Below, in pieces: positions 4,433-61,299 of a stretch of DNA of 64,000 nucleotides. The stretch is from contig NC_134246.1 of assembly GCF_965152275.1 (NCBI RefSeq), positions 34,532,151-34,596,150 on the forward strand, written 5' to 3'. This DNA is from Natator depressus. Its lineage: Eukaryota. Every line of letters begins with the position of its first letter. Position 1 is the first letter of the stretch. Under the pieces are notes generated by a model, which saw only the letters and a list, made by a program, of their open reading frames with translations, searched no databases and had not been told where the DNA came from. The position numbers and the translations under genes were made by a program.

Positions 4433-7235
4433 GAATCATAGAATCATAGAATATCAGGGTTGGAAGGGACCTCAGGAGGTCATCTACTCCAACCCCCTGC
4501 TCAAAGCAGGACTGATCCCCAACTAAACCATCCCAGCCAGGGCTTTGTCAAGCCTGACCTTAAAAACTTCCAAGGAAGGAGATTCTACCATCTCCCTAGG
4601 TAACGCATTCCAGTATTTCACCACCCTCCTAGTGAAAAAGCTAAACCTCCCCCACTGCAACTTGAGACCATTACTCCTTGTCCTGTCCTCTTCTACCACT
4701 GAGAATAGTCTAGAACCATCCTCTCTGGAACCACCTCTCAGGTAGTTGAAAGCAGCTATCAAATCCCCCCTCATTCTTCTCTTCCGCAGACTAAACAATC
4801 CCAGTTCCCTCAGCCTCTCCTCATAAGTCATGTGTTCCAGACCCCTAATCATTTTTGTTGCCCTTCGCTGGACTCTCTCCAATTTATCCACATCCTTCTT
4901 GTAGTGTGGGGCCCAAAACTGGACACAGTACTCCAGATGAGGCCTCACCAATGTCGAAGAGAGGGGAACGATCACATCCCTCGATCTGCTCGCTATGCCC
5001 CTACTTATACATCCCAAAATGCCATTGGCCTTCTTGGCAACAAGGGCACACTGCTGACTCATATCCAGCTTCTCGTCCACTGTAACCCCTAGGTCCTTTT
5101 CCACAGAACTGCTGCCTAGCCATTCAGTCCCTAGTCTGTAGCTGTGCATTGGGTTCTTCCGTCCTAAGTGCAGGACCCTGCACTTATCCTTATTGAACCT
5201 CATCAGGTTTCTTTTGGCCCAATCCTCCAATTTGTCTAGGTCCCTCTGTATCCTATCTCTGCCCTCCAGCGTATCTACCTCTCCTCCCAGTTTAGTATCA
5301 TCCGCAAATTTGCTGAGAGTGCAATCCACACCATCTTTCAGATCATAGATGAAGATATTGAACAAAACCGGCCCCAGGACCGACCCCTGGGGCACTCCAC
5401 TTGACACCGGCTGCCAACTAGACATGGAGCCATTGATCACTACCCGTTGAGCCCGACAATCTAGCCAACTTTCTACCCACCTTATAGTACATTCATCCAG
5501 CCCATACTTCTTTAACTTGCTGACAAGAATACTGTGGGAGACCGTGTCAAAAGCTTTGCTAAAGTCAAGAAACAATACATCCACTGCTTTCCCTTCATCC
5601 ACAGAATCAGTAATCTCATCACAGAAGGCCATTAGATTAGTCAGGCATGACCTTCCCTTGGTGAATCCATGCTGACTGTTCCTGATCACTTTCCTCTCAT
5701 GTAAGTGCTTCAGGATTGATTCCTTGAGGACCTGCTCCATGATTTTTCCGGGGACTGAGGTGAGGCTGACTGGCCTGTAGTTCCCAGGATCCTCCTTCTT
5801 CCCTTTTTTAAAGATTGGCACTACATTAGCCTTTTTCCAGTCATCTGGGACTTCCCCCGTTCGCCACGAGTTTTCAAAGAGAATAGCCAATGGCTCTGCA
5901 ATCACATCCGCCAATTCCTTTAGCACTCTCGGATGCAACTCGTCCGGCCCCATGGACTTGTGCACGTCCAGCTTTTCTAAATAGTCCCTAACCACCTCTT
6001 TCTCCACAGAGGGCTGGCCATCTATTCCCCATGTTGCGATGCCCAGCGCAGCAGTCTGGGAGCTGTCCTTGTTAGTGAAGACAGAGGCAAAAAAAGCATT
6101 GAGCACATTAGCTTTTTCCACATCCTCTGTCACTAGGTTGCCTCCCTCATTCAGTAAGGGGCCCACACTTTCCTTGGCTTTCTTCTTGTTGCCAACATAC
6201 CTGAAGAAACCCTTCTTGTTACTGCTGACATTTCTTGCTAGCTGCAGCTCCAGGTGCGATTTGGCCCTCCTGATTTCATTCCTACATGCCCGAGCAATAT
6301 TTTTATACTCTTCCCTGGTCATATGTCCAAACTTCCACTTCTTGTAAGCTTCTTTTTTATGTTTAAGATCCGCTAGGATTTCACCATTAAGCCAAGCTGG
6401 TCGCCTGCCATATTTACTATTCTTTCGACTCATTGGGATGGTTTGTCCCTGTAACCTCAACAGGGATTCCTTGAAATACAGCCAGCTCTCCTGGACTCCT
6501 TTCCCCTTCATGTTAGTCCCCCAGGGGATCCTACCCATCCGCTTCCTGAGGGAGTTGAAGTCTGCTTTCCTGAAGTCCAGGGTCCGTATCCTGCTGCTTA
6601 CCTTTCTTCCCTGTGTCAGGATCCTGAACTCGACCATCTCATGGTCACTGCCTCCCAGATTCCCATCCACTTTTGCTTCCCCCACTAATTCTTCCCTGTT
6701 TGTGAGCAGCAGGTCAAGAAAAGCTCCCCCCGTAGTTGGCTCGTCTAGCACTTGCACCAGGAAATTGTCCCCTACGCTTTCCAAAAACTTCCTGGATTGT
6801 CTATGCACCGCTGTATTGCTCTCCCAGCAAATATCAGGAAAATTAAAGTCACCCATGAGAACCAGGGCGTGCGATCTAGTAGCTTCTGCGAGTTGCCGGA
6901 AGAAAGCCTCATCCACCTCATCCCCCTGGTCCGGTGGTCTATAGCAGACTCCCACCACTACATCACTCTTGTTACTCACACTTCTAAACTTAATCCAGAG
7001 ACACTCAGGTTTTTCTGCAGTTTCGTACAGGAGCTCTGAGCAGTCATACTGCTCCCTTACATACAGTGCTACTCCCCCACCTTTTCTGCCCTGCCTGTCC
7101 TTCCTGAACAGTTTATAACCATCCATGACAGTACTCCAGTCATGTGAGTTGTCCCACCAAGTCTCTGTTATTCCAATCACGTCATAATTCCCTGACATCA
7201 CCAGGACCTCCAGTTCTCCCTGCTTGTTTCCAAGG
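4433..7235 (-). mobile_element. CR1 LINE copy 1 (sense on the minus strand). It is 5'-truncated (no ORF1 or 5'UTR), retains a near-complete ORF2, and ends in an (ATTCTATG)n 3' tail. It is inserted into a PARP14-like coding exon with a candidate 5-bp TSD, GGGAG, at 4428-4432 and 7234-7238.
   Basis: The plus strand at 4434-4450 reads gaatcatagaatcataga, the reverse complement of the CR1 ATTCTATG tail. Homology to CR1 copy 2 holds up to ~7235 and then switches to exon sequence. Confidence 0.8.
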
Positions 7236-7294
7236 GAGGACCTGCTGGAGGCCCTGGCCGCCGAGCCGTCCCTGGTAAAGGCGTTCGGGTCCAT
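4523..7294 (-). CDS. CR1 ORF2, apurinic-like endonuclease plus reverse transcriptase (923-aa open frame). The first ~19 codons ([19 protein letters not shown]) are read from the antisense of the host exon and are not CR1.
   Basis: CR1 homology begins at [31 protein letters not shown] motifs are [32 protein letters not shown] and the YADD-type [10 protein letters not shown]. The C-terminal part reads ...[47 protein letters not shown]. Confidence 0.8.
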
Positions 7295-21130: not shown

Positions 21131-22969
21131 TTTGATTTTGTGCATCTATCTCTGTACAAATGACCCAAATTCCACTTTGGATTGAGGAAAGCAGGGTTTA
21201 TTCAACCCCCAAATGTTTGTGTTTTTTGATTCTCCAATTTTTTGTTGTTGCAATTTTTGGATTCTGTTGGACCCGAACTGAAATTTTGGGGGAAAATTTT
21301 TGAACTGCCGGTGAACTTAAAAATCAGTCATCCCCCCAGCTCAATTGCCTTCTTACCCTGCCCGAGCTCCCTTCCTCATTATTAGTGAGATCTTGAGGTC
21401 ACAGGTGAAAATTAGGCACCCGACACATTGGCCTTTCAATGGTGTTTGAGCACCTACCTGTCCTTTTTGCCCGCCCCCCCCAAGTTACAGTAAAACAAAG
21501 CAGAGCCTTACATCTATAGCACATCCCCTTTCTGTGCAGACACCAGAGGATCTGTGTGTGGATGGGGCAGGGACATGATATCTTCCTTCAGTGTTACATG
21601 ACTCCTGATCCCTATGGTATTAGCTCCCATGGCTCACAGAGGGATGCAGGAGTCAGCTGCTGTGTATCGCTAAGAGATCTTCCCTCTGGGGCTGAAGAAA
21701 CCTTTTGAAAATAAACATAAGGTAATGGGTTTATTCTGGGTCCTTAGAAAGGAAATCAGTGGAATGTTTGTACCGATTTCCATTATTACTTACAAACCAC
21801 CCAGGGAATTCCCAAAAAGTTTTTTAAAATGAAGCTGAGGCAGTCAGGCTCTCAGTAGGATGGATTACGTTCGAATTTCCCCTGCAGCATTACATGTTAA
21901 CTACAGCAGTAACTGCAGGACTTAGCTGGAATGGCATAGAGGTCTTCTCTAGAGGTGCTCAGAAAATGGGGCTTTTCTTTGTGACAGATGTGGATGAAAG
22001 CAGGGGAAATAATCATTTTTGTAGAAATTTTCATTGGAGAATGTGGCATTTCATCAAAAAACTGACAACTAAAGTTAAGATTTTGTCACAATTATTTTTA
22101 GTAGAAGTCACGGACAGGTCACGGGCAATAAAAAATTCACAGGGTGGGGGAGAGAAATGACAGCTAGAGTCTGTGGGGAACTGACAGGCCAAGCCCCACT
22201 GCCATGGTGGGGGCACAGCCCTGGCTCCAGCAGCTGCAGCTCCGGGGGGGGCGGGAGGGGAGGTGTGCAGAGCACCTTTGGAGCTGGCCGCAGCTGCAGG
22301 GCAGAGGCACACAAGTCCCAACTCCAACCCCAGCCATGGGCACACAGCCCTAGCCACAGCCATCGGGTGTGTGTGTGGTGGGGTGTGCATAGCTCCAGCC
22401 CCGGCAGAAGTTAGAGAGACAAGTTGAGGGAGGTAATATCTTTTCTTGAACCAGCTTGTGTTGGTGAGAGAGACAAGCTTTAGAGCTTCACAGTGCTCTT
22501 CTTCAGGTCTGGTAAATTTACCAGGACAGGTCTACACTACAGAACTATATCGGTATAATTATGTTGCTCAGCGGTAATCAACACACCTGAATGATGTAGT
22601 TATACTGACATAATTCCCCATGTAAACAGCGCTGTAGTGACAGGAGGAAGCGTTGCTACTAGCTGATAACACAGAGCAAGCAGTTTCTAAGTTTCTAAGA
22701 AGCTTAGAAGCTTCTTTGGCATGGTGGGTCACCCCTCTTAGAAAGCTTAATCACTCAGGCCCTCTTTCTATGTCCAAACTTGGTTTCCTCACTCACCGAA
22801 ATGTTGGGGTACACTTACTCCATAAGGTGGTATGTTTGTATATATTGATGACATATACATACATATTAATGTCATTAGATGGTTCTCATGTTTGTTATTT
22901 TAGTCCTCCCAGTTATTTCGGTTCTTTCCTTGTGGTATACCTGTTAAGCTTACAGAAAGTATGAACTTA

Positions 22970-23230
22970 GGGTATATCTACACTACGAAATTAGGTCGAA
23001 TTTATAGAAGTCGGTTTTGTAGAAAGAGGTCTTATACAGTTGATTGTGTGTGTCCCCACACAAGTCCTCTAAGTGCATGTAGTCGGCGGAGTGTGTCCAC
23101 AGTACCGAGGCAACCGTCGACTTCTGGAGCGTTGCGCTGTGGGTGGCTATCCCACAGTTCCTGCAGTCTCCGCCGCCCATTTGAATTCTGGGTAGAAATC
23201 CCAGTGCCTGATGGGGCTAAAACATTGTCG
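22970..23230 (+). repeat. Harbinger left TIR / subterminal region.
   Basis: Inverted match to 27300-27742. Confidence 0.6.
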
Positions 23231-24155
23231 CGGGTGGTGCTGGGTACATATCGTCAGGCCCCCGTTCCCTGCCTCCCTCCGTGAAAGCAGGGGCAGACAA
23301 TCATTTTGCGCCTTTTTTCTTGAGTTACCTGTGCAGACGCCATACCACGGCAAGCATGGAGCCCGCTCAGCTCACCGTATGTCTTCTGGGTGCTGGCAGA
23401 CATGGTACTGCATTGCTACACAGCATCAGTTAATTGCCTTTTGGCAGCAGACAGTGCAGTATGACTGGTAGCCGTCGTCGACATAGTCCTGGGTGCTCTT
23501 CTAACGAGGCAAATGGGCAAACATAGGAGTGACTCAGCCAGGTCATTTCCCTTTTAAGTTTCGTCTCGTGGCGATTGAGTCCTACCGGCAGTGTGCTGTC
23601 TTTTAACCTCCAGCCAGCAGAAGATGATGGCTAGTTGTCATACTGCACTGTCTTCTGCCGAGCACCCAGGAGATGATGACGGCTAGCGGTCATACTGCAG
23701 AGTCTGCTGCCAGCAAGATGTATAAAGATAGATGAAGTGGCTCAAAACAAGAAATAGACCAGATTTGTTTTGTATTCATTTTCTCCTCCTTCCCTCTGTG
23801 AAATCAACGGCCTGCCAAACCCAGTTTTGAATTCTATCCTTGAGGTTTTGAGTTCTATCCTTGAAGGGGCCATTCAGTTTCTCGCAAAGCCACCCCCTTT
23901 GTTGATTTTAATTCCCTGTAAGCCAAACCTGTAAGCCATGTCGTCAGTTGCCCCTCCCTCCATCAGGGCAACGGCAGACAATCGTTCCATGCCTTTTTTC
24001 TGTGCAGACGCCATACCACGGCAAGCATGGAGCCCGCTCAGATCACTTTGACAATTAGGAGCACATTAAACACCACATGCATTATCCAGCAGTATATGCA
24101 GCACCGGAACCTGGCAAAGTGATGCCGGGCGAGTAGGCGACGTCAGCGCGGTGAC

Positions 24156-25316
24156 GTGAGTGATGAGGACATGGACACAGACTTCTATCAAAGCAGGGGC
24201 CCTGGCAATGTGGGCATCATGGTGCTAAAGGGGCAGGTTCATGCGGTGGAACGCCGATTCTGGGCTTGGGAAACAAGCACAGACTGGTGGGATGGCATAA
24301 TGTTGCAGGTCTGGGACGATTCCCAGTGGTTGCGAAACTTTCGAATGCGTAAGGGCACTTTCATGAAACTTTGTGACTTGCTTTCCCCTGCCCTGAGGCA
24401 CAAGAATACCAAGATGAGAGCAGCCTTCACAGTTGAGAAGCGAGTGGCGATAGCCCTGTGGAAGCTTGCAATGCCAGACAGCTACTGGTCAGTCGGGAAT
24501 CAATTTGGAGTGGGCAAATCTACTGTGGGGGCTGCTGTGATGCAAGTAGCCAACGCAGTCAAAGATCTGCTGATATCGAGGGTAGTGACCCTGGGAAATG
24601 TACAGGTCATAGTGGAGGGCTTTGCTGCAATGGGATTCCCTAACTGCGGTGGGGCCATAGATGGAACCCATATCCCTATCTTGGCACCAGAGCACCAAGC
24701 CGGCGAGTACATAAACCGCAAGGGGTACTTTTCAATAGTGCTGCAAGCTCTGGTGGATCACAAGGGATGTTTCACCAACATCAATGTGGGATGGCCAGGA
24801 AAGGTACATGACGCTCACATCTTCAGGAACTCTGGTCTTTTTCAAAAGCTGCAAGAAGGGACTTTATTCCCAGACCAGAAAATAACCATTGGGGATGTTG
24901 AAATGCCTATATGTATCCTTGGGGACCCAGCCTACCCCTTAATGCCATGGCTTATGAAGCCATACACAGGCACCCTGGACAGTAGACAGGAGCTGTTCAA
25001 CTACAGGCTGAGCAAGTGCAGAATGGTGGTAGAATGTGCATTTGGACGTTTAAAAGCGCGCTGGTGCAGTTTACTGACTCGGTTAGACCTCAGCGAAACC
25101 AATATTCCCACTGCTATTACTGCTTGCTGTGTGCTCCACTATATCTGTGAGAGTAAGGGGGAGATATTTATGGTGGGGTGGGAGGTTGAGGCAAATCCTC
25201 TGGCTGCTGGTTTCGCACAGCCAGACACCAGGGTGGTTAGAAGAGCACAGGAGGGCGCGGTGCTCATCAGAGAAGCTTTGAAAACCAGTTTCATGACTGG
25301 ACAGGCTACGGTGTGA
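24156..25316 (+). CDS. Harbinger DDE transposase (DDE_Tnp_4 / HARBI1-like), intact 386-aa ORF.
   Basis: Candidate catalytic residues are AIDGTHIPILAPEH (D), ILGDPAYPLMPWLMKPY (D) and VVECAFGRLKARW (E), with the usual spacing. There are no internal stops. Confidence 0.75.
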   Translation: MSDEDMDTDFYQSRGPGNVGIMVLKGQVHAVERRFWAWETSTDWWDGIMLQVWDDSQWLRNFRMRKGTFMKLCDLLSPALRHKNTKMRAAFTVEKRVAIALWKLAMPDSYWSVGNQFGVGKSTVGAAVMQVANAVKDLLISRVVTLGNVQVIVEGFAAMGFPNCGGAIDGTHIPILAPEHQAGEYINRKGYFSIVLQALVDHKGCFTNINVGWPGKVHDAHIFRNSGLFQKLQEGTLFPDQKITIGDVEMPICILGDPAYPLMPWLMKPYTGTLDSRQELFNYRLSKCRMVVECAFGRLKARWCSLLTRLDLSETNIPTAITACCVLHYICESKGEIFMVGWEVEANPLAAGFAQPDTRVVRRAQEGAVLIREALKTSFMTGQATV

Positions 25317-25592
25317 AAGTTCTGTTTGTTTCTCCATGATGAAACCCACCGCCCCTTGGTTCACTCTACTTTCCTGTAAGCTAACCACCCTCCCCTCCTC
25401 CCTTCGATCACCGCTTGCAGAGGCAATAAAGTCATTGTTGCTTCACATTCATGCATTCTGTATTCATTCATCACACAAATAGGGGGATAACTACCAAGGT
25501 AGCCCAGGAGGGGTGGTGGAGGAGAGAAGCACCAGGAGAGGTGGTGGAGGAGGGAAGGACAAGGCCACACAGCACTTTAAAAGTTTAAAACT

Positions 25593-26225
25593 TTAAAACT
25601 TATTGAATGCCAGCCTTCTTTTGCTTGGGCAATCCTCTGCGGTGGAGTGGCTGGGTGGCTGGAGGCCCCCCCCCCACCGCGTTCTTGGGCGTCTGGGTGA
25701 CGAGGCTATGGAACTTGAGGAGGAGGGCGGTTGGTTACACAGGGGCTGTAGCGGCAGTCTGTGCTCCTGCCTTTCCTGCAGCTCAACCATACACCAGAGC
25801 ATATTGGTTTGATCCTCCAGCAGCCTCAGCATTGAATGCTGCCTCCTCTCATCACGCTGCCGCCACATTTGAGCTTCAGCCCTCTCTTCAGCCCACCACC
25901 TCTCCTCCTGGTTATATTGTGCTTTCCTGCACTCTGACATTGTCTGCCTCCATGCATTCGTCTGTGCTATGTCAGTGTGGGAGGACAGCATGAGCTTAGA
26001 GAACATTTCATCACAAGTGCGTTTTTTTCGACTTCTAATCTTCACTAGCCTCTGGGAAGGAGAAGATCCTGTGATCCTTGAAACACATGCAGCTGGTGGA
26101 GAAAAAAAAAAGGCAGTGGTATTTAAAAAGACACATTTTCTAGAACAATGGCTACACTCTTTCACGGTAAACCTTGCTGTTAACATTACATACACAGCAC
26201 ATGTGCTTTCGTTCCAAGGTCGCAT
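25593..26225 (-). CDS. Candidate second exon / C-terminal coiled-coil part of the Harbinger Myb-like protein (210-aa open frame). Splice phase not resolved.
   Basis: ECRKAQYNQEERWWAEERAEAQMWRQRDERRQHSMLRLLEDQTNMLWCMVELQERQEHR. It is on the same strand and downstream of the GTGAGT donor, but no acceptor in a compatible phase was found. Confidence 0.3.
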   Translation of the reverse strand: MRPWNESTCAVYVMLTARFTVKECSHCSRKCVFLNTTAFFFSPPAACVSRITGSSPSQRLVKIRSRKKRTCDEMFSKLMLSSHTDIAQTNAWRQTMSECRKAQYNQEERWWAEERAEAQMWRQRDERRQHSMLRLLEDQTNMLWCMVELQERQEHRLPLQPLCNQPPSSSSSIASSPRRPRTRWGGGLQPPSHSTAEDCPSKRRLAFNKF

Positions 26226-26625
26226 TTTGCCGCCCCCCCATGGCTAACAGCAGGGAAGATTTCTGTTCAGCCACAGGCAAACAGCCCAGCAGGAACGGGC
26301 ACCTCTGAATGTCCCCTTAGGAAAAGCACCCTATTTCAACCAGGTGACCATGAATGATATCACTCTCCTGAGGATAACACAGAGAGATAAAGAACGGATG
26401 TTGTTTGAATGCCAGCAAACATACACTGCAATGCTTTGTTCTACAATGATTCCCGAGTACGTGCTACTGGCCTGATGTGGTAAAGTGTCCTACCATGGTG
26501 GGTGGAATAAGGCTGCCCTCCCCAGAAACCTTTTGCAAAGGCTTTGGGAGTACATCCAGGAGAGCCGCAAATACCAGGGCAAATTAATCATTAAACATGC
26601 TTGCTTTTAAACCATGTATAGTATT

Positions 26626-27297
26626 TTAAAAGGTACACTCACCAGAGGTCCCTTCTCTTCCTGGCAGGTCTGGGAGGCAGCCTTGGGTGGGTCCAGGGGT
26701 GACTGCCTCCAGGTCCAGGGTGAGAAACAGTTCCTGGCTGTCGGGAAAACCGGTTTCTCCGCTTGCTTGCTGTGAGCTATCTACAACTTCATCATCATCA
26801 TCTTCCTCGTCCCCAAAACCTGCTTCTGTGTTGCCTCCATCTCCATTAAAGGAGTCAAACAACAAGGCTGGGGTAGTGGTGGCTGAACCCCCTAAAATGG
26901 CATGCAGCTCATCATAGAAGCAGCATGTTTGGGGCTCTGAATCGGAGCAGCCGTTTGCCTCTCTGGTTTTCTGGTAGGCCTTAAGTTTCACGCGGCATTG
27001 CTTCAGGTCCCTGTTATGGCCTCTGTCCTTCATGCCCTGGGAGATTTTGACAAATGTTTTGGCATTTCGAAACCTGGAACGGAGTTCTGATAGCACGGAT
27101 TCCTCTCCCCATACAGAGATAAGATCCCATACCTCCCATTTGGTCCATGCTGGAGCTCTTTTGCGATTCTGGGACTCCGTCGTGGTCACCTCTGCTGATG
27201 AGCTCTGGCCAGCGTGACAAGCTGCAGGTGAACATGCAAACAGGAATTTGAAATTCAAAAGTTCACGGGCCTTTTCCTGTCTACCTGGCCAGTGCAT
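26626..27297 (-). CDS. Harbinger Myb/SANT-like DNA-binding protein, first exon (223-aa open frame). A GTGAGT splice donor on the minus strand at 26637-26642 suggests a downstream exon.
   Basis: RKRAPAWTKWEVWDLISVWGEESVLSELRSRFRNAKTFVKISQGMKDRGHNRDLKQCRVKLKAYQKTREANGCS is Myb/SANT-like, followed by an acidic tail (DEEDDDDEVVD). The minus-strand sequence reads gacctctg|gtgagtgtacc. Confidence 0.6.
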   Translation of the reverse strand: MHWPGRQEKARELLNFKFLFACSPAACHAGQSSSAEVTTTESQNRKRAPAWTKWEVWDLISVWGEESVLSELRSRFRNAKTFVKISQGMKDRGHNRDLKQCRVKLKAYQKTREANGCSDSEPQTCCFYDELHAILGGSATTTPALLFDSFNGDGGNTEAGFGDEEDDDDEVVDSSQQASGETGFPDSQELFLTLDLEAVTPGPTQGCLPDLPGREGTSGECTF

Positions 27298-27299
27298 CT

Positions 27300-27742
27300 C
27301 AGTTGAGAGTGCTGTCCAGAGCGGTCACAATAGAGCACTCTGGGATAGCTCCCGGAGGCCAATACCGTCTAATGGCATCCACAGTACCCCAAATTCGACC
27401 CGGAAAGGCCGATTTAAGCGCTAATCCACTTGTCAGAGGTGGATTAAGGAAATCAATTTTAAGAGCCCATTAAGTCGAAAAGAAGGGCTTCATCGTGTGG
27501 ACGGGTGCAGCGTTACATCAATTTAACGCTGCTAAATTCGACCTAAACTCCTAGTGTAGACCGGGGCTCAGTGGGATACATTCTCCCATCGACTCCCCTT
27601 ACTCTTCTCATTCTGGTAGAGTACAGGAGTCAATGGGAGAGCGATCTGCAGTCGATTTAGCAGGTCTTCACTAGACCCACTAAATCGACCACTTATGCAT
27701 CGATTGTCACGCGTCGATCCCCCGGTAAGCGTAGACAAACCC
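27300..27742 (-). repeat. Harbinger right TIR / subterminal region.
   Basis: Inverted match to 22970-23230. It also matches the MITE at 61006-61299. Confidence 0.6.
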
Positions 27743-28638
27743 TAAGTTAAAGGTCACAACCATATATGGACCTCATGCCTTAACTCATCTTGAAAACCTG
27801 TCCCTTAGTCTCTCTGTGCCTCAGTGTCCTTTGTGACATGAGAACAATAGCTGTTCCCTGCACCGCATCAGTGTTGTGAGGATAAATGCATTGAAGCCTG
27901 TGAGATGCTCCGATACTGTGGTGGTCATATAACTGAGTGGACTCAGGGAGCACAGCACAGGAGACCCCGGTTCATATTGCTTGCGCATCATTTGGATCCA
28001 GTCCTTTCCTCTATTCACATGAGTCATTCCATTGAAGTCACATGACTAAAGTGATCCCCTTTCCTACATGTTTAATGGATCAGGCCTTTGGCCCCTGATA
28101 TTTGGATTTTTGGATTATTATTATGATTATTAGTATTACAATTGGTGATAATTTAATTATAAGACAATATTAATAACTATGATATACTCAAAGTTTAAAT
28201 TGTCCCTGGAGCTTTAAAAGACATAAAAGGAAGAGAGGGCCATCTCCTCAGTCAGTGTTAATTGGAATCAATAAGCCAAGTCCCCATCTGGTGCAAAATC
28301 AGCCATAGCACCACTGGAGTCAGTTGGGCTAGATTTGCAACTGGTGTAAGTTGGATATACGAATGATATATGAATCCTGGTCCTAGGTCATCGGGGGGGC
28401 TCCTCTGGTAGCAGCCTTCTCTGGAACAGCAGGGCAGCGATCAGCATCCTGGTCTTGGGTAGTGGGAAAGGTTCTCTGGGGGTCCTCCTCCTGAAGAGCT
28501 GGTGAGATGTTGCTCCAGGCTGTGAGGTCCCAAAGAGCCATCCTTGTTGCACCAGGTCTCCCTGCAGAGGTATCCCAGGGCTTTTCTTCAGCCAGGTGCT
28601 GATTCTTTCATCCTTGCTGGTGGTCCATGTCACAGAAC

Positions 28639-31600
28639 CATAGAATCATAGAATATCAGGGTTGGAAGGGACCTCAGGAGGTCATCTTGTCCAACCCCCT
28701 GCTCAAAGCAGGACCGATCCCCGACTAAATCATCCCAGGCAGGGCTTTGTCAAGCCTGACCTTAAAAACTTCTGGGGAAGGAGATTCCACCACCTCCCTA
28801 GTGAAAGCATTCCAGTGTTTCACCACCCTCCTAGTGAAAAAGTTTTTCCTAATATCCAACCTAAATCTTCCCCACTGCAACTTGAGACCATTACTCCTTG
28901 TTCTGTCATCTGCTACCACTGAGAACAGTCTAGAGCCATCCTCTTTGGAACCCCCTTTCAGGTAGTTGAAAGCAGCTATCAAATCCCCTCTCATTCTTCT
29001 CTTCTGAAGACTAAACATCCCCAGTTCCCTCAGCCTCGCCTCATAAGTCATGTGTTCCAGTCCCCTAATCATTTTTGTTGCCCTCCGCTGAACTCTTTCC
29101 AATTTTTCCACATCCTTCTTGTAATGTGGGGCCCAAAACTGGACACAGTACTCCAGATGAGGCCTCACCAATGTCGAATAGAGGGGAACTATCACGTCCC
29201 TCGATCTCCTGGCAATGCCCCGACTTATACATCCCAAAATGCCATTGGCCTTCTTGGCAACAAGGGCACACTGTTGACTCATATCCAACTTCTCGTCCAC
29301 TGTAACCTCTAGGTCCTTTTCTGCAGAACTGCTGCCGAGACATTCGGTCCCTAGTCTGTAGCGGTGCATGGGATTCTTCCGTCCTAAGTGCAAGACTCTG
29401 CACTTGTCCATCAGATTTCTTTTGGCCCAATCCTCCAATTTGTCTAGGTCCCTCTGTATCCTATCCCTACCCTCCTGCGTATCTACCACTCCTCCCAGTT
29501 TAGTGTCATCTGCAAACTTGCTGAGGGTGCAATGCACACCATCCTCCAGATCATTAATGAAGATATTGAACAAAACCGGCCCCAGGACTGACCCCTGGGG
29601 CACTCCACTTGATATCGGCTGCCAACTAGACATGCAGCCATTGATCACTACCCGTTGAGCCCGACAATCTAGCCAGCTTTCTATCCACCTTATAGTCCAT
29701 CCAGCCCATACTTCTTTAACTTGCTGGCAAGAATACTGTGGCAGACCGTGTGAAAAGCTTTGCTAAAGTCAAGGAACAACACGTCCACTGCTTTCCCTTC
29801 ATCCACAGCGCCAGTTATCTCGTCATAGAAGGCAATTAGATTAATCAAGCATGACTTGCCCTTGGTAAATCCATGCTGACTGTTCCTGATCACTTTCCTC
29901 TCCTCTAAGTGCTTCAGAATTGATTCCTTGAGGACCTGCTCCATGATTTTTTCAGGGACTGAGGTGAGGCTGACTGGCCTGTAGTTCCCAGGATCCTCCT
30001 CCTTCCCTTTTTTAAAGATGGGCACTACATTAGCCTTTTTCCAGTCATCTGGGACCTCCCCCGATCGCCATGAGTTTTCAAAGATAATGGCTAATGGTTC
30101 TGCAATCACATCCGCCAACTCCTTTAGCACTCTCAGATGCAACGCATCCGGCCCCATGGACTTTTGCTTTTTGCTTTTCTAAATAGTCCTGAACCACTTC
30201 TTTCTTCACAGAGGGCTGGTCACCTCCTCCCCATGCTGTGCTGCCCAGTGCAGCAGTCTGGGAGCTGACCTTGTTCGTGAAGACAGAGGCAAAAAAAGCA
30301 TTGAGTACATTAGCTTTTTCCACATCCTCTGTCACTAGGTTGCCTCCCTCATTCAGTAAGGGGCCCACACTTTCCTTGACTTTCTTCTTGTTGCTAACAT
30401 ACCTGAAGAAACCCTTCTTGTTACTCTTAACATCTCTCGCTAGCTGCAACTCCAGGTGTGATTTGGCCTTCCTGACTTCACTCCTGCAAGCCTGAGCAAT
30501 ATTTTTATACTCATCCCTGGTCATTTGTCCAATCTTCCACTTCTTGTAAGCTTCTTTTTTGTATATAAGAGCAGCAAGGATTTCACTGTTAAGCCAAGCT
30601 GGTCGCCTGCCATATTTACTATTCTTTCTAGACATCGGGATGGTTTGTCCCTGTAACCTCAATAAGGATTCTTTAAAATACAGTCAGCTCTCTTGGACTC
30701 CTTTCCCCCTCATGTTATTCTCCCAGGGGATCTTGCCCATCAGTTCCGTGAGGGAATCAAAGTCTGCTTTTCTGAAGTCCAGGGTCTGTATTCTACTGCT
30801 CTCCTTTCTTCCTTTTGTTAGGATCCTGAACTTGACCATTTCATGGTCACTGCCTCCCAGGTTCCCATCCACTTTTGCTTCCCCTACTAATTCTTCCCGG
30901 TTTGTGAGCAGCAGGTCAAGAAGAGCTCCGCTCCTAGTTGGTTCTTCCAGCACTTGTACCAGGAAATTGTCCCCTACATTTTTCAAAAAGTTCCTGGATT
31001 GTCTGTGCACCGCTGTATTGCTCTCCCAGCAGATATTAGGGTGATTGAAGTCTCCCATGAGAACCAGGGCCTGCGATCTAATAACTTCTGCGAGTTGGCG
31101 GAAGAAAGCCTCGTCCACCTCCTCCCCCTGGTCTGGTGGTCTATAGTAGACTCCCACCACGACATCAGCCTTGTTGCTCAGACTTCTAAACTTAATCCAG
31201 AGACTCTCAGGTTTTTCTGCAGTTTCATACTTGAGCTCTGAGCAGTCATACTGCTCCCTTACATACAGTGCAACTCCCCAACCTTTTCTGCCCTTCCTGT
31301 CCTTCCTGAACAGCTTATATCCATCCATGACAGTACTCCAGTCATGTGAGTTATCCCACAAAGTCTCTGTTATTCCAATCACATCATAATTCCTTGACTG
31401 TGCCAGGACCTCCAGTTCTCCCTGCTTGTTTCCCAGGCTTCGTGCATTTGTATATAGGCACTTGAGGTAACCTGATGATCGCCCCTCTTTCTCAGTATGA
31501 GGCAGGAGCCCTCCCCTCTCACGCGCTCCTGCTCGTGCCTCCTCCCGGTATCCCACTTCCCCACTTACCTCAGGGCTTTGGTCTCCTTCCCCCGGTGAAC

Positions 31601-37630: not shown

Positions 37631-38575
37631 ATGAGCTATACCAGTGAAACTGCACAGAGGAATCACAGCACAGTGACCCAACTCATTTATCTTGGCTTCT
37701 CCCAGAATCCAGTGACACGAGCAATACTTTGCGTAGGTTTCTCCATTATCTACACCATCTCCCTGATGGGCAACAGCATCATCAACCTCATCACAATGCT
37801 GGACTTGGCCCTCCACACCCCTATGTATTTCTTCCTCTGGAACCTGTCCTTTTTGGAGAGCTGCTACATCTCTGTCACCATCCCCAAGATGCTGGTCAAC
37901 TTTGTCTCTGAGGAGAGGACCATCTCCTTCACTGGGTGTACCATCCAGATGCATTTCGTCCTTTCTCTTGGGACAGCAGAGTGCTACCTGCTGGCCGCCA
38001 TGGCATACAGGGCCATCTGCTCCCCTCTGCATTACCCCACCATTATGAATCCCAGAGCCCGTGCCAAGATGGCTGCTGTCTGCTGGCTCTGTGGAATCCT
38101 GATGCCCATGAGCAAAGTGATTTGTATCTTCTCCTTGCCCTACTGTGGGCCCAACAAGATCAACCACTTCTTCTGCGACATCCCCCCTGTGCTGAAGCTG
38201 GCCTGTGGGGACACCTCCAGGAGCGAGGTCTTCATTGTACCGATCAGCCTAATGATCTCTGTCATCCCCTTCCTAATGGTGCTGGTGTCCTATGCCTGCA
38301 TCCTCTACACCATCCTGAAGACAACTTTATCCGAGGGAAGGCACAAAGCTTTCTCCACCTGCTCCTCCCACCTCACCGCAGTCATCTTGTTCTATGGTTC
38401 AACCTGTGCTATGTACCTGCAGCCTAAGTCCAGCCACGTAGCGGACATGGACAGAGTGGTGGCCCTATTTCATACCGTCGTCATCCCCACGTTAAACCCT
38501 ATGATCTACAGCCTAAGGAACCAGGAGGTGAAGGCTGCTCTGAAGAGACTGAGGGGGAGGAAAAGATTTTCATGA
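37631..38575 (+). CDS. Olfactory receptor (class II-like), single exon, 314-aa open frame. The DRY motif is deleted (MAY-RAIC where MAYDRYVAIC is expected), so it may be non-functional.
   Basis: LGFS, PMYFFLWNLSFLESCY, KAFSTCSSHL, PTLNPMIYSLRNQEVKAALKRL and an N-terminal NHS glycosylation site are present. At 38003-38017 the sequence reads gcatacagggccatc, encoding AYRAI. Confidence 0.8.
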   Translation: MSYTSETAQRNHSTVTQLIYLGFSQNPVTRAILCVGFSIIYTISLMGNSIINLITMLDLALHTPMYFFLWNLSFLESCYISVTIPKMLVNFVSEERTISFTGCTIQMHFVLSLGTAECYLLAAMAYRAICSPLHYPTIMNPRARAKMAAVCWLCGILMPMSKVICIFSLPYCGPNKINHFFCDIPPVLKLACGDTSRSEVFIVPISLMISVIPFLMVLVSYACILYTILKTTLSEGRHKAFSTCSSHLTAVILFYGSTCAMYLQPKSSHVADMDRVVALFHTVVIPTLNPMIYSLRNQEVKAALKRLRGRKRFS

Positions 38576-44092: not shown

Positions 44093-44521
44093 TTAACCAG
44101 TTGATTCTGGGAAACTTTCACTGGAGAGTGCATCAGCCGCCTTGTTAGAAGTTCCTGAAATGTGTTGTATTTCAGAATCAAAATCTTGGAGAGCTAAACT
44201 CCACCGAAGAAGTTTTTTGTTATTGTCCTTGACGGTATGAAGCCACTTCAGCGCAGAATGGTCAGTTTGCAGGTGGAAACGCCATCGCCAAACGTATGGG
44301 CGTAGCTTTTCCAGAGCGTACGTGATGGCGTAACATCCCCTTTTGCTGATTGACCAGTGGCTTTCCCTCTCAGACAGTTTTTTGCTGAGAAACACGACAG
44401 CATGGAATTCTTGATCCGGTCCTTCCTGCATTAAAACTGCTCCTACACCACGCTCAGATGCATTTGTGGTTACTAGGAACGGATTGTCAAAGTCTGGGGC
44501 CTTTAGCACAGGGTCAGACAT
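44093..44521 (-). CDS. RNase H domain.
   Basis: FLVTTNASERGVGAVLMQEG...HAVVFLSKKLSERESHWSISKRGCYAITYALEKLRPYV...LQTDHSALKWL. Confidence 0.65.
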   Translation of the reverse strand: MSDPVLKAPDFDNPFLVTTNASERGVGAVLMQEGPDQEFHAVVFLSKKLSERESHWSISKRGCYAITYALEKLRPYVWRWRFHLQTDHSALKWLHTVKDNNKKLLRWSLALQDFDSEIQHISGTSNKAADALSSESFPESTG

Positions 44522-44691
44522 GAGTGTCTCTTTAAGCTGGTTAAAGGCCTTCTGACACTCTTCAGTCCACTGAACTGCATTTGGCTGGGGTTTTTTGGTT
44601 AGGTCTGTTAGTTGGGCAGCAATTTGGCTGTATTGTGGTACAAATCACTGTAATATCTGACCAAGCCTAAGAAGGATTGGACCTGTTTTTT

Positions 44692-45342
44692 TTACTTTGG
44701 GACAGGCCACTTTTGGATAGCATCCACTTTGGCCTGTAGGGGGTTGATGGTTCCTTGACCCACCTGGTATTCAAGGTAAGTCACTCTGTTTAGACCTACT
44801 TGACACTTAGCCTTAACAGTTAGTTCTGCCTCCCTTTTGCTCTTGAAGGCTTTTTGTAGATGTTCCAGGTGTTCTGCCCAGGAATCCGAAAATATGGCCA
44901 CATCGTCAAGGTAGGCGACTGCATATTCTCCCAATCCCTCCAGGAGACCATTTACAACTTTTTGGAAGGTGGCGGGTGCATTTCGCAGCCCGAAAAGGAG
45001 CACATTAAATTCATACAGCCCAACATGTGTGATGAAGGCTGACCTTTCCTGGGCTGATTCATCTAGAGGTACCTGCCAGTACCCCTTGGTTAAGTCCAAG
45101 GTAGAGATGAACTGGGCCCGTCCCAGTTTCTCTAATACGTCATCTGTGCGTGGCATTGGATAGTTGTCTGGGCAAGTTACAGCATTTAGCTTACGGTAGT
45201 CCACGCAAAAACGTATCTCCCCATCTGGTTTGGGCACTACAACTACTGGAGATGCCCATGCACTGCCAGAGGGGTGGATTATACCCATCTGCAGCATATC
45301 CTGGATCTCCCGTTCTATAGCAGTTTTAGCTTGAGGAGACAC
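44692..45342 (-). CDS. Reverse transcriptase (Ty3/Gypsy type).
   Basis: WASPVVVVPKPDGEIRFCVDYRKLNAVT, LDLTKGYWQVPL, LLFGLRNAPATFQ, AYLDDVAIFS. Confidence 0.75.
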   Translation of the reverse strand: MSPQAKTAIEREIQDMLQMGIIHPSGSAWASPVVVVPKPDGEIRFCVDYRKLNAVTCPDNYPMPRTDDVLEKLGRAQFISTLDLTKGYWQVPLDESAQERSAFITHVGLYEFNVLLFGLRNAPATFQKVVNGLLEGLGEYAVAYLDDVAIFSDSWAEHLEHLQKAFKSKREAELTVKAKCQVGLNRVTYLEYQVGQGTINPLQAKVDAIQKWPVPK

Positions 45343-45620
45343 CCAGTAAGGTTGGTCTCTAAATGGGTGAGCATTACCTGTGTCAATGGAGTGTTATGCC
45401 CGTTCAGTCAGTCCTGGGGTGGCTGAGAACATTGACGCGTAGCTAGTGCACAGCTCCTTGATCTGCTGTCACTGCATACGCCCAAGGGTCATGGAGAGGT
45501 TCACCTCTTCCACATCACCAGCACTTTTCCCTTCGTAGTAGACACCTTCAGGCCACTCAGCGTCACCTCCTCCCTGGGCTGTAAACTGACAAACCTTTAA
45601 TTCTCTGGAATAAAAGGGAT

Positions 45621-46857
45621 TTAGAGAATTAATGTGGTACTCCTTAGGCTTTCAGTCTGAGGTGGGGAATGCTTTGAGATAACAGCTCCCAGGCACTCTT
45701 GGACCATGAATGGCCCTTCCCACGATGCTTCCATTTTATGGGCCTGGAGCGCTTTCAAGACCATGACCTGGTCTCCTACTTGGAAGAAACGCTCTCTGGC
45801 ATGTTTATCATACCAGGCTTTTTGCTCTTTTTGAGAGTCTTGTAGATTTTCTTTAGCAAGGGCTAAAGAGGTTAGGAGGGTGTTTTGTAGTTTGGGTACA
45901 AAGTCCAGAATGTTAGTTCCTGGAGAAGGTGTAAACCCCTCCCATTGCTGCTTCACCAACTGTAATGGCCCCTTAACCTCATGGCCATATACAAGTTCAA
46001 ATGGTGAAAACCCTAAACTGGGATGTGGTACAGCTCTGTAGGCAAAGAGCAACTGCTGCAACACTAGGTCCCAATCATTGGAGTGCTCATTTACGAATTT
46101 ACATATCATGGCCCCCAAAGTTCCATTAAACTTCTCCAGCAGGCCATTTGTTTGATGGTGGTAAGGAGTGGCAACCAAGTGATTCACCCCATGAGCCTCC
46201 CAAAGGCTTTCCATTAGTTCCTGCATCTGTAAGGATGTAGGAGGGCCAACCTACCTTGGCAAAAATGTCTGTTAGTGCCTGGCACACACTTTTAGCCCTG
46301 ATGTTGCTTAGAGCTACTGCTTCCGGCCATCGAGTGGCAAAATCCATGAAAGTCAGTATGTACTGCTTTCCTCTGGGTGTCTTTTTCGGAAAAGGACCCA
46401 GAATATCCACAGTTACTTGCTGAAATGGAACCTCAATGATGGGGAGTGGCTGGAGAGGGGCTTTGACCTGGTCTTGGGGTTTTCCCACTCTTTAGCACAC
46501 CTCACAAGAGTGGACATAGGTAGAAACATCCTTGCCCATTCCCTCCCAGTGGAACAACTTTCCCAAATGGTCTTTGGTTCTGTTCACCCCGGCATGGCCA
46601 CTAGGATGATCGTGGGCTAAGCTCAAGAGCTTGGCCTGGTACTTAGTTGGAACTACCAACTGTCTCTGAGGATGCCAGTCGTCCTGGTGTCCACCAGAAA
46701 GAGTTTCCTTGTATAAAAGTTCTCTTTCTACAACAAACCTGGATTGATTAGAAGAGCTGAGAGGCGGTGGGTTACTCCGTGCCATGCTCCAAGCTCTCTG
46801 GAGGCTTTCATCTGCTTCCTGTTCGGTCTGGAACTGTTCCCTTGATGTTGGAGACAT
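45621..46857 (-). CDS. Integrase (HHCC zinc finger plus rve catalytic core plus C-terminal part), three overlapping ORF pieces. It lies UPSTREAM of the RT in element sense.
   Basis: LAHDHPSGHAGVNRTKDHLGKLFHWEGMGKDVSTYVHSCEVC is the HHCC finger. VDILGPFPKKTPRGKQYILTFMDFATRWPEAVALSNIRAKSVCQAL...ILTDAGTNGKP is the D,D core. ATPYHHQTNGLLEKFNGTL carries the E. Confidence 0.7.
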
Positions 46858-47525
46858 CAGTTCTTAATTGGATTGTGGACCTGGGCTTGGTCCCTCTGGA
46901 AGCAATGCAGGTGATGGGCTGTTTCCGTTGACTGTGAACCACTCTCTGCTGGTGCACTATGTTGGGGTTCAGGCTCTGGCTGAGCCTCTTGTGTAGGGTT
47001 ATCTGCTGCTGCCAATGCAGGTTCGGTGGGGCCCTCTGGTGTTGGGGTTGCAAGCACTGGATTCAGTGCTGGCAATGGTTCTGGTTCTGGGACTGGCTCT
47101 GTCTGGGTCTCTGGGACTGGATCCACTACTGCTGTTGCAGACGTTGGCATGGGGTCTGGTTCCATCACCTCTGACTGGGTCCTGGTAGAAGTCTCCAGAA
47201 CAGAGCTAGGTGTGACAGCTTGCTTCACCTGGCTGCAGTTGACCATTCCCACCCTCTTAGCTAGCTTCCCATGATTGGCCAGGTCTTCCCCCAACAGCAT
47301 GGGGATGGGATAATCATCATAGAGTGCAAAAGTCCATGTTCCTGACCAGCCCTTGTACTGGACAGGCAACTTGGCTGTAGGCAAGTCAAAAGAGTTTGAC
47401 TTGAAGGGTTGAATCGTTACTTGGACCTCTGGGTCAATTAAATTGGGGTCCACTAAGGAAGCCGTGGATAGCTGACACTTGTGCTCTGGTGTCCCTCCAT
47501 GCTGTAACCTTCTTCCCACCCACAT
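46857..47525 (-). CDS. pol segment with protease-like region and a Pro-rich linker (222-aa open frame). The catalytic D-S/T-G is not clearly recognisable.
   Basis: LVDPNLIDPEVQVTIQPFKSN...YDDYPIPMLLGEDLANHGKLAKRV, followed by a PEPEP-rich linker. Confidence 0.4.
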   Translation of the reverse strand: MWVGRRLQHGGTPEHKCQLSTASLVDPNLIDPEVQVTIQPFKSNSFDLPTAKLPVQYKGWSGTWTFALYDDYPIPMLLGEDLANHGKLAKRVGMVNCSQVKQAVTPSSVLETSTRTQSEVMEPDPMPTSATAVVDPVPETQTEPVPEPEPLPALNPVLATPTPEGPTEPALAAADNPTQEAQPEPEPQHSAPAESGSQSTETAHHLHCFQRDQAQVHNPIKN

Positions 47526-47899
47526 TCACAGTTTCCCTCTGCTCTGACGGTATCTGGGAGGCATCTGGGCCTGAGGACCTTTGGTGTGACTCCAGTGCAA
47601 TGAACTGTAATCTGTTGGGGTTCTGGGGAAGTTGGCCTTTACATGCCCCAGCTTGTTACATTTAAAACATCGCCCAGCTGACTGGTCACTGGGGTGAGGT
47701 GGGTTGCTGGAGAACAGTGTGGTGGGACAATAAAGTGTCTGGGATTTTCCTTGGGGTTCAGTTGGGGTCTTGGGTTGCCCCCGGTAGTAAGGTGTGGTCT
47801 GAGGGTGTCCTTTTGGTATCTGCTCAAATTGTGACCAGGGTTGTTCCTCTCTCCTCCCTCCACCCGTTTTGTTCCGGTTTGCCCCGCCTCTCTGGCGGT

Positions 47900-48907
47900 C
47901 TAGAACTGCTCATATTGATGAGCATAAGAAGCAAGACTTTCTGCTGAGTCTATTTTCTTATCCCATAAACACTGTTTTATATCATCCTCGGACATATTCA
48001 GGAATTGCTTCTGTATCATCAAATCCCACATTCCTCCAAAGCTAGTTACATCCCATCCTTTGAGCCATTTATCAAACAGATCTGTCATCTGGTTTACATA
48101 AGCCACATTACTTAGTCCAGGCCCTCTCGTAAGGGTTCAAAATTTTATTCTGTAAGTTTCAGGTGTAACTTGAAATTCTTTTAAAACAAAATCCTTGAAT
48201 TTACCATAGTCAGAAGCCTCACCAATAGGCATATTATTGAATATGTCCAGAGCTCTTTCAGTCAATTTTGCTACCAATGTGGTCATCTTGTGATTGTCAG
48301 GAATTTGATGGAGTGTGCACAGTCTCTCAAAGGTGAGAAAATATTCAGCAATATCACTGGATGCATCATACTGTGGGCATAGTCGCTCCCATTTGTGGAT
48401 TGTTGGGGAAGGATTGTTAGGGATATTCGGTATATTCTGGTGAGCCCTTGCCTTCTCTATCTCCAGTGCATGCTTCCTCTCTTTTTCCCTCTCCTCCATT
48501 TCTTTTTCTTTTGCCTCCATAGCTCTCCTGTGGGCAGCCTCCTGGGCTTTCTCTGCCTCTTTTGCTGGCGCCATATCTCTCCTGTGGGCAGCCTCTTGGG
48601 CAGCCTCCTCTGTCTTTGCCTTGGCTTTTTCTGCCTCTTTCGCTGCCTCTATAGCGAGTCATTTTATTTCGACCAGTTTCTGGTGTTCCTTTTCTTTCTC
48701 TTCTGCTTCCAGTCTAGCTAATTCCAGTTTCTGTTGGACATTGCTTTCTGTCATCCTAGCCTCTCTGTGTTTAACTAGCTTGACCCAAAAGTTAGAAAAA
48801 AACCCTTGTTTGTGAATTTCCAATTCGCTGTGCTGTAACCTAATACCTTTGCCTCTGATAGCTGTTCCCAGCCTACAGAGAAATCCTTTTGTAAAAAAAC
48901 CTAACAC
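47900..48907 (-). CDS. gag fragments. There are three same-frame ORFs separated by stops, a Lys/Glu-rich coiled-coil part, and a C-terminal SCAN-like capsid domain at 47900-48106.
   Basis: The SCAN-like part reads MTDLFDKWLKGWDVTSFGGMWDLMIQKQFLNMSEDDIKQCLWDKKIDSAESLASYAHQYEQ and resembles the SCAN LLVLEQFL...EL block. The coiled-coil part reads RAMEAKEKEMEEREKERKHALEIEKARA. A degenerate zinc knuckle (CFKCNKLGHVKANF) lies at ~47590-47640. Confidence 0.55.
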
Positions 48908-60540: not shown

Positions 60541-61005
60541 ACTCTGAAGCCTAGAATATTGATAGAGTCATTGCGAAGCAATGGAAATAGTTACAAGGCT
60601 GTTTCAGAACAGAACTTTTTTTTTAGAATATCACCAGGTTGAATCATCAATGGGATTCAGGGTCTGCTAATGAGGGGATGGGCTATAATTAAAGAAACAG
60701 ACTTTGGGGGGAAAATAAAGAAAACAGAGACTACTGGAGCGAACTTCACCGCCATGGCTGCCACCATCACCATCATCTGGGACCTCAAGTCTTTTTTGTC
60801 CTAATCCTAAGGTATATTCTAATCAGACCAGGCCAGAGAGAGGGACCCAGATGACAATGGCACCCGTACCAGCTCCAGCTAAAGCCCAAACACCACCAGA
60901 GCTGAAATGGTACTGGACTTCAACAACAGCACTACCAACAACACCTTCAGCTCCTCTCAACTAGCGTCTTCTCTTTTACCCAAAAGGAGAGTTATTACTG
61001 CCTTT

Positions 61006-61299
61006 GGCCTTGTCTACACTTACCGGGGGATCGAAGCGCAGCGATCAATGAATCGGCGGTTGATTTAGCAGGTCTAGTGAAGACCCACTAAATAGACTAC
61101 ATATTGCTCCCCGTCGACATCTGTACTTCAGCAGAATGAGAAGAGTAAGGGGAGTCGACGGGAGAGCATCTCCCATCAACATAGCGTAGTGTGTACCCCA
61201 CGGTAACTAGATCTAAGCTATGTGGACTTGAGTTACGCAATTCATATAACTCAAATTGCATATCTTAGATCGACTTTCCCCTGTAGTGTAGACAAGGCC
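61006..61299. mobile_element. Non-autonomous MITE derived from the Harbinger at 22970-27742. It has perfect 14-bp TIRs (GGCCTTGTCTACAC) and is 294 bp long.
   Basis: Left ggccttgtctacacttaccgggggatcgaagcgcagcg...gatttagcaggtctagtgaagacccactaaat matches the reverse complement of the Harbinger right end gtctacgcttaccgggggatcgacgcg...gatttagtgggtctagtgaagacctgctaaat. The internal cagaatgagaagagtaaggggagtcgac matches Harbinger 27570-27620. Confidence 0.7.

Follow-up and report, generated by a model that had tools for sequence, protein, structure and literature searches.

The closest described relative of the element treated here is Harbinger3_DR (2008), a PIF/Harbinger DNA transposon that—as summarized in PMC9392472—bears one gene for a DDE_Tnp_4 transposase and one for a Myb/SANT-like (trihelix) protein, terminal inverted repeats (TIRs) of ~14–35 bp, repeated subterminal motifs, and a 3-bp TWA duplication. 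The same source, citing Sinzelle et al. 2008, gives both proteins as required for transposition, with the Myb-like protein importing the transposase via its N-terminal end. TWA is the target-site duplication (TSD) of PIF/Harbinger elements, whose autonomous candidates average ~4.1 kb (PMC4482050). Turtle DNA transposons are little covered in reviews (PMC5381603), and tetrapod Harbingers are described as having been inactivated long ago (PMC9004415), the coelacanth being named as the exception (PMC5381603). Here, we describe a Harbinger copy in a stretch of 64,000 nucleotides of Natator depressus (NC_134246.1, positions 34,532,151 to 34,596,150; the chromosome is OZ223866.1 in GenBank), hereafter the window. 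Positions 27631–48575 of the window (20,945 bases) agree at 100% identity with OZ223866.1, a chromosome of ~41 Mb in assembly GCA_965152195.1. An earlier note on this DNA had seen at 22970–27742 an apparently complete Harbinger with both genes intact, as the best candidate in the window for an active or recently active element. The element is structurally complete and shorter than proposed, and it is very probably an old copy inactivated in both genes.

The likeness to Harbinger3_DR extends to both genes, the TIRs, the subterminal motifs, and the target type, at a size of ~4.6 kb. Unlike Harbinger3_DR, the family found here is turtle specific with the TIR GGGTATGTCTACACTAC, its genes are convergent, its Myb-like gene has one intron, and the window copy is mutated in both genes. 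The nearest kin are sea-turtle paralogues that go under the labels "uncharacterized protein LOC..." or "unnamed protein product" in annotations and belong to the same family at 88–92% protein identity, sharing ends, gene order, and splice site with the window copy; examples are XP_048679537.1 (Caretta caretta, 429 aa) and the Natator copy OZ223854.1:117638015-117649304. Among domesticated Harbinger genes of vertebrates, HARBI1 is a homologue of the transposase and NAIF1 one of the Myb-like protein, and several turtle homologues carry the automatic name "putative nuclease HARBI1". HARBI1, in contrast, is a single-copy host gene without TIRs; the sequence described here decays neutrally and sits within an element that is multicopy, bounded by TIRs, and provided with TSDs, and hence is not a domesticated gene. 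Repbase holds Harbinger entries for Chrysemys picta. In the literature, no specific description of turtle Harbinger or miniature inverted-repeat transposable element (MITE) families was found.

Positions 22970–27566 are a genuine full-length two-gene PIF/Harbinger DNA transposon. Its extent was set by three further copies—L001 and L010 of Natator and L002 of Caretta, obtained via their annotated transposases—whose homology to the window starts at 22966–22973 and stops at 27566–27571. Because this stop is common to three independent copies, the right end lies at 27566 and not at 27742, so that the span first proposed was 176 bp too long. The strongest inverted repeat (I3) pairs 22977–23004 with 27533–27560 (28 nt, 89%), and the same ends are present in L001, L002, and L010. 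These copies read TWA-GGGTATGTCTACAC...GTGTAGACCAGGGC-TWA at their borders, which the right end of the window copy matches (...GTGTAGACCGGGGC at 27566). The element does have TIRs, and the TTA at 22967–22969 and the TAA at 27743–27745 that were taken for the flanks are present; the flanks of the corrected element, though, are TTA on the left and TCA on the right. The target type was named correctly as TWA, which is borne out at the level of the family: TSDs are perfect in L002 (TAA/TAA) and in L010 (TTA/TTA), and L001 shows TAA/TTA. The window copy has diverged from a perfect duplication by one base. On its right side, the junction with an abutting MITE fragment can be placed only to within ~7 bp, as both elements are G-rich beside a near-palindromic GTSTASAC motif.

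Two short sequence features mark the ends of this family. Three sites in the 64 kb, against 0.01 expected, show the terminal layout TGTCTACACTAC-N6-ARGTCGA, which lies at 22975, at 27562, and at one end of a MITE at 61006–61299 and is absent at 27742. The 10-mer GGTCGAATTT likewise has three occurrences in the window (0.01 expected), one at the left and two at the right Harbinger end; it stands at matching positions in L001 and L010 and is restricted to the element ends in the four copies. By likeness to Harbinger3_DR, it is probably the binding site of the Myb-like protein.

The 5′ region before the transposase ATG has a structure of its own, with a ~100-bp direct duplication (23272–23375 / 23953–24046) that includes the ATG context and with ~38-bp inverted repeats (23442–23479 / 23623–23712). 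No other part of the window copy has diverged as far (15% private changes), and the Caretta copy L002 (2588–4900) bears a further ~1-kb duplication of this region.

The catalytic part of the transposase is well preserved. The plus-strand open reading frame (ORF) at 24156–25316, which the earlier note had read as a 386-aa transposase without stops, matches DDE_Tnp_4 (PF13359) at E = 7.5e-36 and Plant_tran (PF04827) at E = 1.6e-12. Its AIDGT, LGDPAY, and VVECAF motifs are identical to the family consensus and give D212, D300, and E336 in the 429-aa numbering, so that the PIF-type domain and the D, D, E triad stand where they had been seen. The family transposase, however, is 429 aa long and begins MEAAQLTL... 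In this frame, the window copy shows no indels across 1290 bases from the ATG at 24027, and it is interrupted at its 32nd codon by a TGA, downstream of which lies the "386-aa ORF", listed from a GTG. The stop reads as a CpG-to-TpG change (CGA>TGA). Restarting at Met49 leaves 381 aa without the N-terminal 48 residues. The missing segment is probably needed for function, because the Myb-like protein, according to PMC9392472, imports the transposase via its N-terminal end. A look-up returned no annotated record of the 381-aa product anywhere, and a Pfam rescan for an N-terminal helix-turn-helix or DUF8040 domain gave no useful difference between the window copy and intact relatives. Compared with a consensus of 26 family proteins, the window transposase is 90.4% identical (other members 89–97%, and 93–97% for the sea-turtle paralogues named above) and differs from it in 11 columns with a conservation of at least 95%, N372Y among them.

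The partner gene is present as well, in the form in which it had first been noticed: a Myb/SANT-like ORF on the opposite strand with a GTGAGT donor. The minus-strand ORF at 26626–27297 matches Myb_DNA-bind_4 (PF13837) at E = 1.6e-11, and splicing from 26643 to 26092 keeps the frame open, with ...GEGTS joined to AACVS... as in the annotated family proteins. The product is 84–87% identical to annotated two-exon turtle proteins of 353–374 aa, which provides the Myb/SANT-like DNA-binding protein expected as second gene of a PIF/Harbinger element. Its ORF lacks the family start and part of the DNA-binding domain, as was found from a three-copy DNA alignment and an eleven-protein alignment. The relatives begin with MQSSSAEVTMMESQ...; in the window (~27209), their ATG has become ACG, with 5 bp inserted behind it, and ACG also replaces the two Met codons that come next. 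The ORF stays open solely through an ATG further upstream, at 27297, that happens to be in frame and that opens a short upstream ORF in L001. A 12-bp deletion (~26979) further drops the residues ELRQ from the Myb domain, which are kept in all 10 relatives compared, and both the start loss and this deletion are private to the window copy among the 11 Myb-like proteins. Two Arg-to-Trp changes in the same domain are CpG decay. The short (SKWRAEE) repeat is no lesion and represents a family variant, found also in P0176, P0177, P0178, and P0187. With these defects beside the codon-32 stop of the transposase, the claim that both genes are intact does not hold.

The divergence from other copies points in the same direction. 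Across 4515 ungapped columns of a four-copy alignment (window, L001, L002, and L010), the window copy differs from the other three by 9.8–11.3%, and these differ among themselves by 4.2–5.5%. Hereby, 328 substitutions (7.3%) are private to the window copy, as opposed to 61 for L001, 115 for L002, and 66 for L010 (1.4–2.6%)—a private load three to five times that of the other copies, even across spacer, intron, and exons—and 35 of its private changes are CpG decays. Private divergence is alike in the transposase coding sequence (4.6%), the intron (4.6%), and the Myb exons (5.0–5.6%), which argues for neutral decay rather than selection. A divergence of ~10%, which the earlier note had itself named as refuting recent activity, is thereby reached toward all three copies compared. 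Its second yardstick, a ratio of nonsynonymous to synonymous substitution rates (Ka/Ks) near 1, was not observed, as the ratio is ~0.5 in all pairs; this value is not decisive, and hence the comparison of exons with the intron was used instead.

Near-identical relatives were sought among annotated proteins, which comprise thousands of family members in six sea-turtle genomes. The transposase search returned 3456 proteins, nearly all from turtles and with sea turtles best at 88–90%, and the Myb-like search returned 1128, mostly from turtles; clusters at 90% identity hold 167 and 114 transposases and 782 Myb-like proteins. The highest protein identity among the best matches and their cluster members, Natator annotation included, is 92.4%. 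With nothing above this value, the changes are taken as private to the window copy rather than as marks of a young subfamily. P0147 is the nearest relative with an annotation, but its locus L010 is no nearer at the DNA level (89%). An orthologous Harbinger was likewise not found, as no cluster member of suitable identity lies on the homologous ~38–44-Mb chromosome. Other copies are better preserved: L001 keeps an uninterrupted 429-aa transposase and L002 a 367-aa Myb-like protein. Some transposase paralogues form pairs that are at least 99% identical—P0007/P0141 in Natator, P0162/P0167 in Eretmochelys, and P0165/P0166 in Caretta. They lie mostly on the same small-chromosome contigs, for which haplotypes, segmental duplicates, or recent transpositions are all conceivable.

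We consider it highly probable that the window copy is an old, non-autonomous member of a Harbinger family abundant in Cheloniidae, inactivated in both genes. Its remaining long ORFs are leftovers kept by the very slow mutation rate of turtles and not signs of function. At this locus, the DNA of Natator differs by ~1.3% from its orthologue in Chelonia and by ~3.7% from that in Caretta. With a Natator–Chelonia split at 33.6 million years ago (PMC12448945), the former value leads to implausibly old ages, so that absolute dating was dropped and age is given in relative terms only. The lesions in both genes, the excess of private substitutions, the deviations at conserved positions, and the distance to the nearest relative together speak against the proposal that the element is active or recently active.

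Three observations weigh against the reading as an old, inactivated copy. The Met49 product retains the whole catalytic domain at the level of sequence. All five indels in the coding exons are multiples of three, which is slightly surprising under pure decay and counts mildly, one of them being the shared repeat-number variant. Finally, the Ka/Ks of ~0.5 implies that part of the divergence arose under selection in active lineages, and the window copy may come from a slightly different subfamily and be younger than 7% implies. A rival view has the copy as young and as part of a separate subfamily that is seldom annotated, with most of its private divergence being subfamily-diagnostic rather than acquired after insertion. 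The Ka/Ks, the in-frame indels, and a short (SKWRAEE) variant common to four further proteins would fit; yet exons have diverged as much as the intron, the nonsense codon, the start loss, and the two R-to-W changes are CpG or simple transitions, none of the 10 relatives has the ELRQ deletion, and none of the family members retrieved from six sea-turtle genomes, Natator included, exceeds 92.4% identity. We regard this view as very unlikely and keep to an old, decayed copy.

The 176 bp between the Harbinger end and 27742 belong to another element. A 294-bp element with perfect 14-bp TIRs does exist at 61006–61299, as had been described, but its proposed origin from the Harbinger by shared termini and subterminal sequence does not stand. 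In inverted orientation, the segment 27567–27742 matches the left 165 bp of this MITE at 80.6% identity, the match spanning 27582–27746 and 61002–61165 and thus lying outside the Harbinger; apart from the terminal motif, BLAST aligns nothing of the right part of the MITE (61166–61299) with the element. The segment 27567–27742 is missing at the ends of L001, L002, and L010. A full MITE is found in L001 (~1112–1400), unlinked to the Harbinger, with TIRs GGCTACGTCTGCAC / GTGTAGACATAGCC and a TTA/TTA duplication. Because of this unlinked full copy, 27567–27742 is taken as a truncated copy from a distinct family of ~294-bp MITEs. The remainder of the truncated MITE was not found left of 22970.

In their 14-bp TIRs starting GG..., their 3-bp flank duplications (TTA/TTA in L001), and their lack of coding capacity, the 294-bp element and its relatives resemble Tourist-like or PIF-type MITEs. 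One MITE end follows the Harbinger layout of TIR-N6-ARGTCGA and the other is a variant; the window MITE is flanked by TTT/TTT (61003–61005 and 61300–61302) instead of the TWA expected for the PIF/Harbinger type. The pattern shared with the Harbinger comprises ~25–30 bp at the right end only, where TGTCTACACTAC-N6-ARGTCGA is matched exactly; the TIR agrees with that of the L001 MITE in 16 of 17 bases. A deletion derivative of the window Harbinger was considered for the MITE and rejected, as the interior is unrelated and only the right end bears the terminal pattern. Judging by the sequence of this end, mobilization of the MITE by the Harbinger transposase family is plausible, and the MITE family, with its similar terminal motif and its like 3-bp target type, was probably moved by the same or a related Harbinger transposase.

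The outer flanks of the stretch 22970–27742 are symmetric and read AAC-TTA...TAA-GTT (inverted repeat I7). This would suit a composite transposon, in which Harbinger and half MITE moved together by means of the left Harbinger TIR and the outer MITE TIR into a palindromic AAC-TWA-GTT site. Extended palindromic targets are known for PIF. The outer ends GGGTATATCTACAC and GGGTTTGTCTACGC, the flanks TTA and TAA followed by complementary AAC and GTT, and the direct contact of the MITE fragment with the Harbinger end—without host DNA between them—all agree with such a unit. TTA and TAA, however, form no direct duplication, the outer end lacks both the TGTCTACACTAC-N6-ARGTCGA pattern and the GGTCGAATTT of true Harbinger ends, and the MITE piece is missing from all three of the other copies. 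By chance alone, the two extra symmetric triplets would arise with a probability of ~1/64. A composite is hence judged very unlikely, and we retain a Harbinger of 4597 bp beside a truncated MITE. Least tenable, to the point of near exclusion, is a complete autonomous Harbinger at 22970–27742 that is active now or recently and gave rise to the 61006–61299 MITE: long open frames for both proteins with conserved DDE residues, intact splice donor and acceptor, TTA and TAA flanks followed by symmetric AAC/GTT, and a MITE with perfect 14-bp TIRs would be in line with it, but three other copies end at 27566, the transposase stops at codon 32 of 429, the Myb-like gene has lost its start and part of its domain, every compared copy is 9.8–11.3% away with a private branch of 7.3%, no relative above 92.4% protein identity was found, and the MITE aligns only to the non-Harbinger positions 27582–27746.

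A search for an empty site, proposed in the earlier note, led to Chelonia mydas, where the orthologous locus was fetched via the neighboring olfactory receptor gene. Both C. mydas assemblies (L004 and L005) lack window positions 22853–30128 and with them the Harbinger, the MITE fragment, the 3′ part of a CR1 element, and ~950 bp of unique DNA. One breakpoint falls 117 bp to the left of the element and the other within the CR1, so that neither matches an element end, and the junction has 1–2 bp of microhomology; Caretta and Eretmochelys keep 29409–30128. As the breakpoints lie off the element ends, part of the CR1 is lost, two other species keep the right-hand part, and the junction is a simple microhomology, the gap reads as a 7.3-kb lineage-specific deletion and neither as an empty site, which was rejected, nor as an excision. 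The loci compared in Caretta and Eretmochelys end ~1.8 kb short of the element, and those in Macrochelys and Trachemys stop before the insertion site; for Lepidochelys kempii, a look-up returned no receptor protein.

Modeled on Harbinger3_DR, an intact member of this family would operate with two convergent genes. The two-exon Myb/SANT-like protein would bind subterminal motifs, probably GGTCGAATTT, of which the left end has one and the right end two, and would also bind the N-terminus of the 429-aa DDE transposase and carry it into the nucleus. There, the transposase would cut at the TIRs (GG...GTCTACACTA...) and reinsert the element at TWA, duplicating 3 bp. The window copy would no longer supply this machinery: CGA>TGA truncates its transposase frame at codon 32, a product restarted at Met49 would be devoid of the N-terminal part with which the Myb-like partner makes contact, and the Myb-like gene is without its family start codon and short of four residues in the DNA-binding domain. 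As its ends retain TIRs and putative binding motifs, it might at most be movable in trans.

Table 1. Coordinates of the Harbinger copy, its genes and lesions, and the MITE copies in the window
Feature	Position	Strand	Remarks
Harbinger copy, whole	22970..27566	+	4597 bp; ends set by homology to L001, L002, L010
Left target-site copy TTA	22967..22969	.	Direct reading; family TSD is TWA
Right target-site copy TCA	27567..27569	.	One base off TTA; possibly belongs to the abutting MITE fragment
Left TIR	22970..23004	+	GGGTATATCTACACTACGAAATTAGGTCGAATTTA; one GGTCGAATTT motif at 22994-23003
Right TIR	27532..27566	-	Reverse complement is GCCCCGGTCTACACTAGGAGTTTAGGTCGAATTTA
Second right-end subterminal GGTCGAATTT motif	27391..27400	-	Candidate Myb-like binding site
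Transposase gene, family 429-codon frame	24027..25316	+	Stop codon 25314-25316; gapless alignment to P0001 and P0003 (429 aa)
Premature TGA, transposase codon 32	24120..24122	+	CGA (Arg) in L001 and L002; codon-by-codon comparison
Longest ATG-started remnant ORF	24171..25316	+	381 aa from Met49; without N-terminal 48 residues
Catalytic codons	D212 24660-24662; D300 24924-24926; E336 25032-25034	+	
LHN motif reading LHY (N372Y)	25134-25142	+	
Myb/SANT-like exon 1	26643..27297	-	Open from upstream ATG 27297, not the family start; Myb_DNA-bind_4 match
Myb-like intron	26093..26642	-	GTGAGT donor, polypyrimidine tract, CAG acceptor
Myb-like exon 2	25593..26092	-	Stop codon 25593-25595
Full-length MITE, 294 bp	61006..61299	+	Perfect 14-bp TIRs GGCCTTGTCTACAC / GTGTAGACAAGGCC; right end with Harbinger-type pattern
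Truncated MITE copy (positions 1 to ~180), not Harbinger	27567..27742	-	Outer TIR GGGTTTGTCTACGC; TAA at 27743-27745

The window holds further mobile elements and two genes. A CR1-type long interspersed element on the minus strand (4523–7294) has an uninterrupted 923-aa ORF2 that comprises both an endonuclease (Exo_endo_phos) and a reverse transcriptase (RVT_1); another CR1, which is broken (~28692–31556, minus strand), is ~90% identical to it, and extra ~1-kb CR1 pieces near the receptor gene in Caretta and Eretmochelys are ~94% identical to it. Two intact single-exon olfactory receptor genes lie at 37631–38575 (plus strand) and 54843–55838 (minus strand). The former is 98% identical to OR10A2 of C. 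mydas, and its orthologue, of which the annotations of Caretta and Eretmochelys contain no more than partial products (191 and 208 aa), may be disrupted there. Olfactory receptor regions are divergence hotspots in sea turtles (PMC12448945). A series of ORFs on the minus strand at 44093–48574 corresponds to pol/gag of a long terminal repeat retrotransposon, with one RVT_1 match and others integrase- and RNase H-like, and consecutive plus-strand ORFs at 57452–59663 look like a hAT/ZBED-type transposase by eye, with no Pfam match at E = 1e-3.

The element at 22970–27566 is a known kind of transposon in an ordinary decayed copy. Its annotation is now corrected—an end at 27566 and a family transposase of 429 aa—and the ends, the TSD, and a candidate binding motif of the family are defined; the "absence" at the locus in Chelonia mydas is explained by a 7.3-kb deletion. 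For turtles, a long ORF with DDE residues is no evidence of activity. ORF-bearing Harbinger copies number in the hundreds in sea turtles. If some of them were recent transpositions rather than haplotypes or segmental duplicates, a live Harbinger and a MITE family partnered with it would be present in Cheloniidae, which we regard as a slim prospect. Should sea-turtle Harbingers indeed still move, this would contrast with tetrapod Harbingers being regarded as long extinct, and herein lies the sole wider interest of this family.

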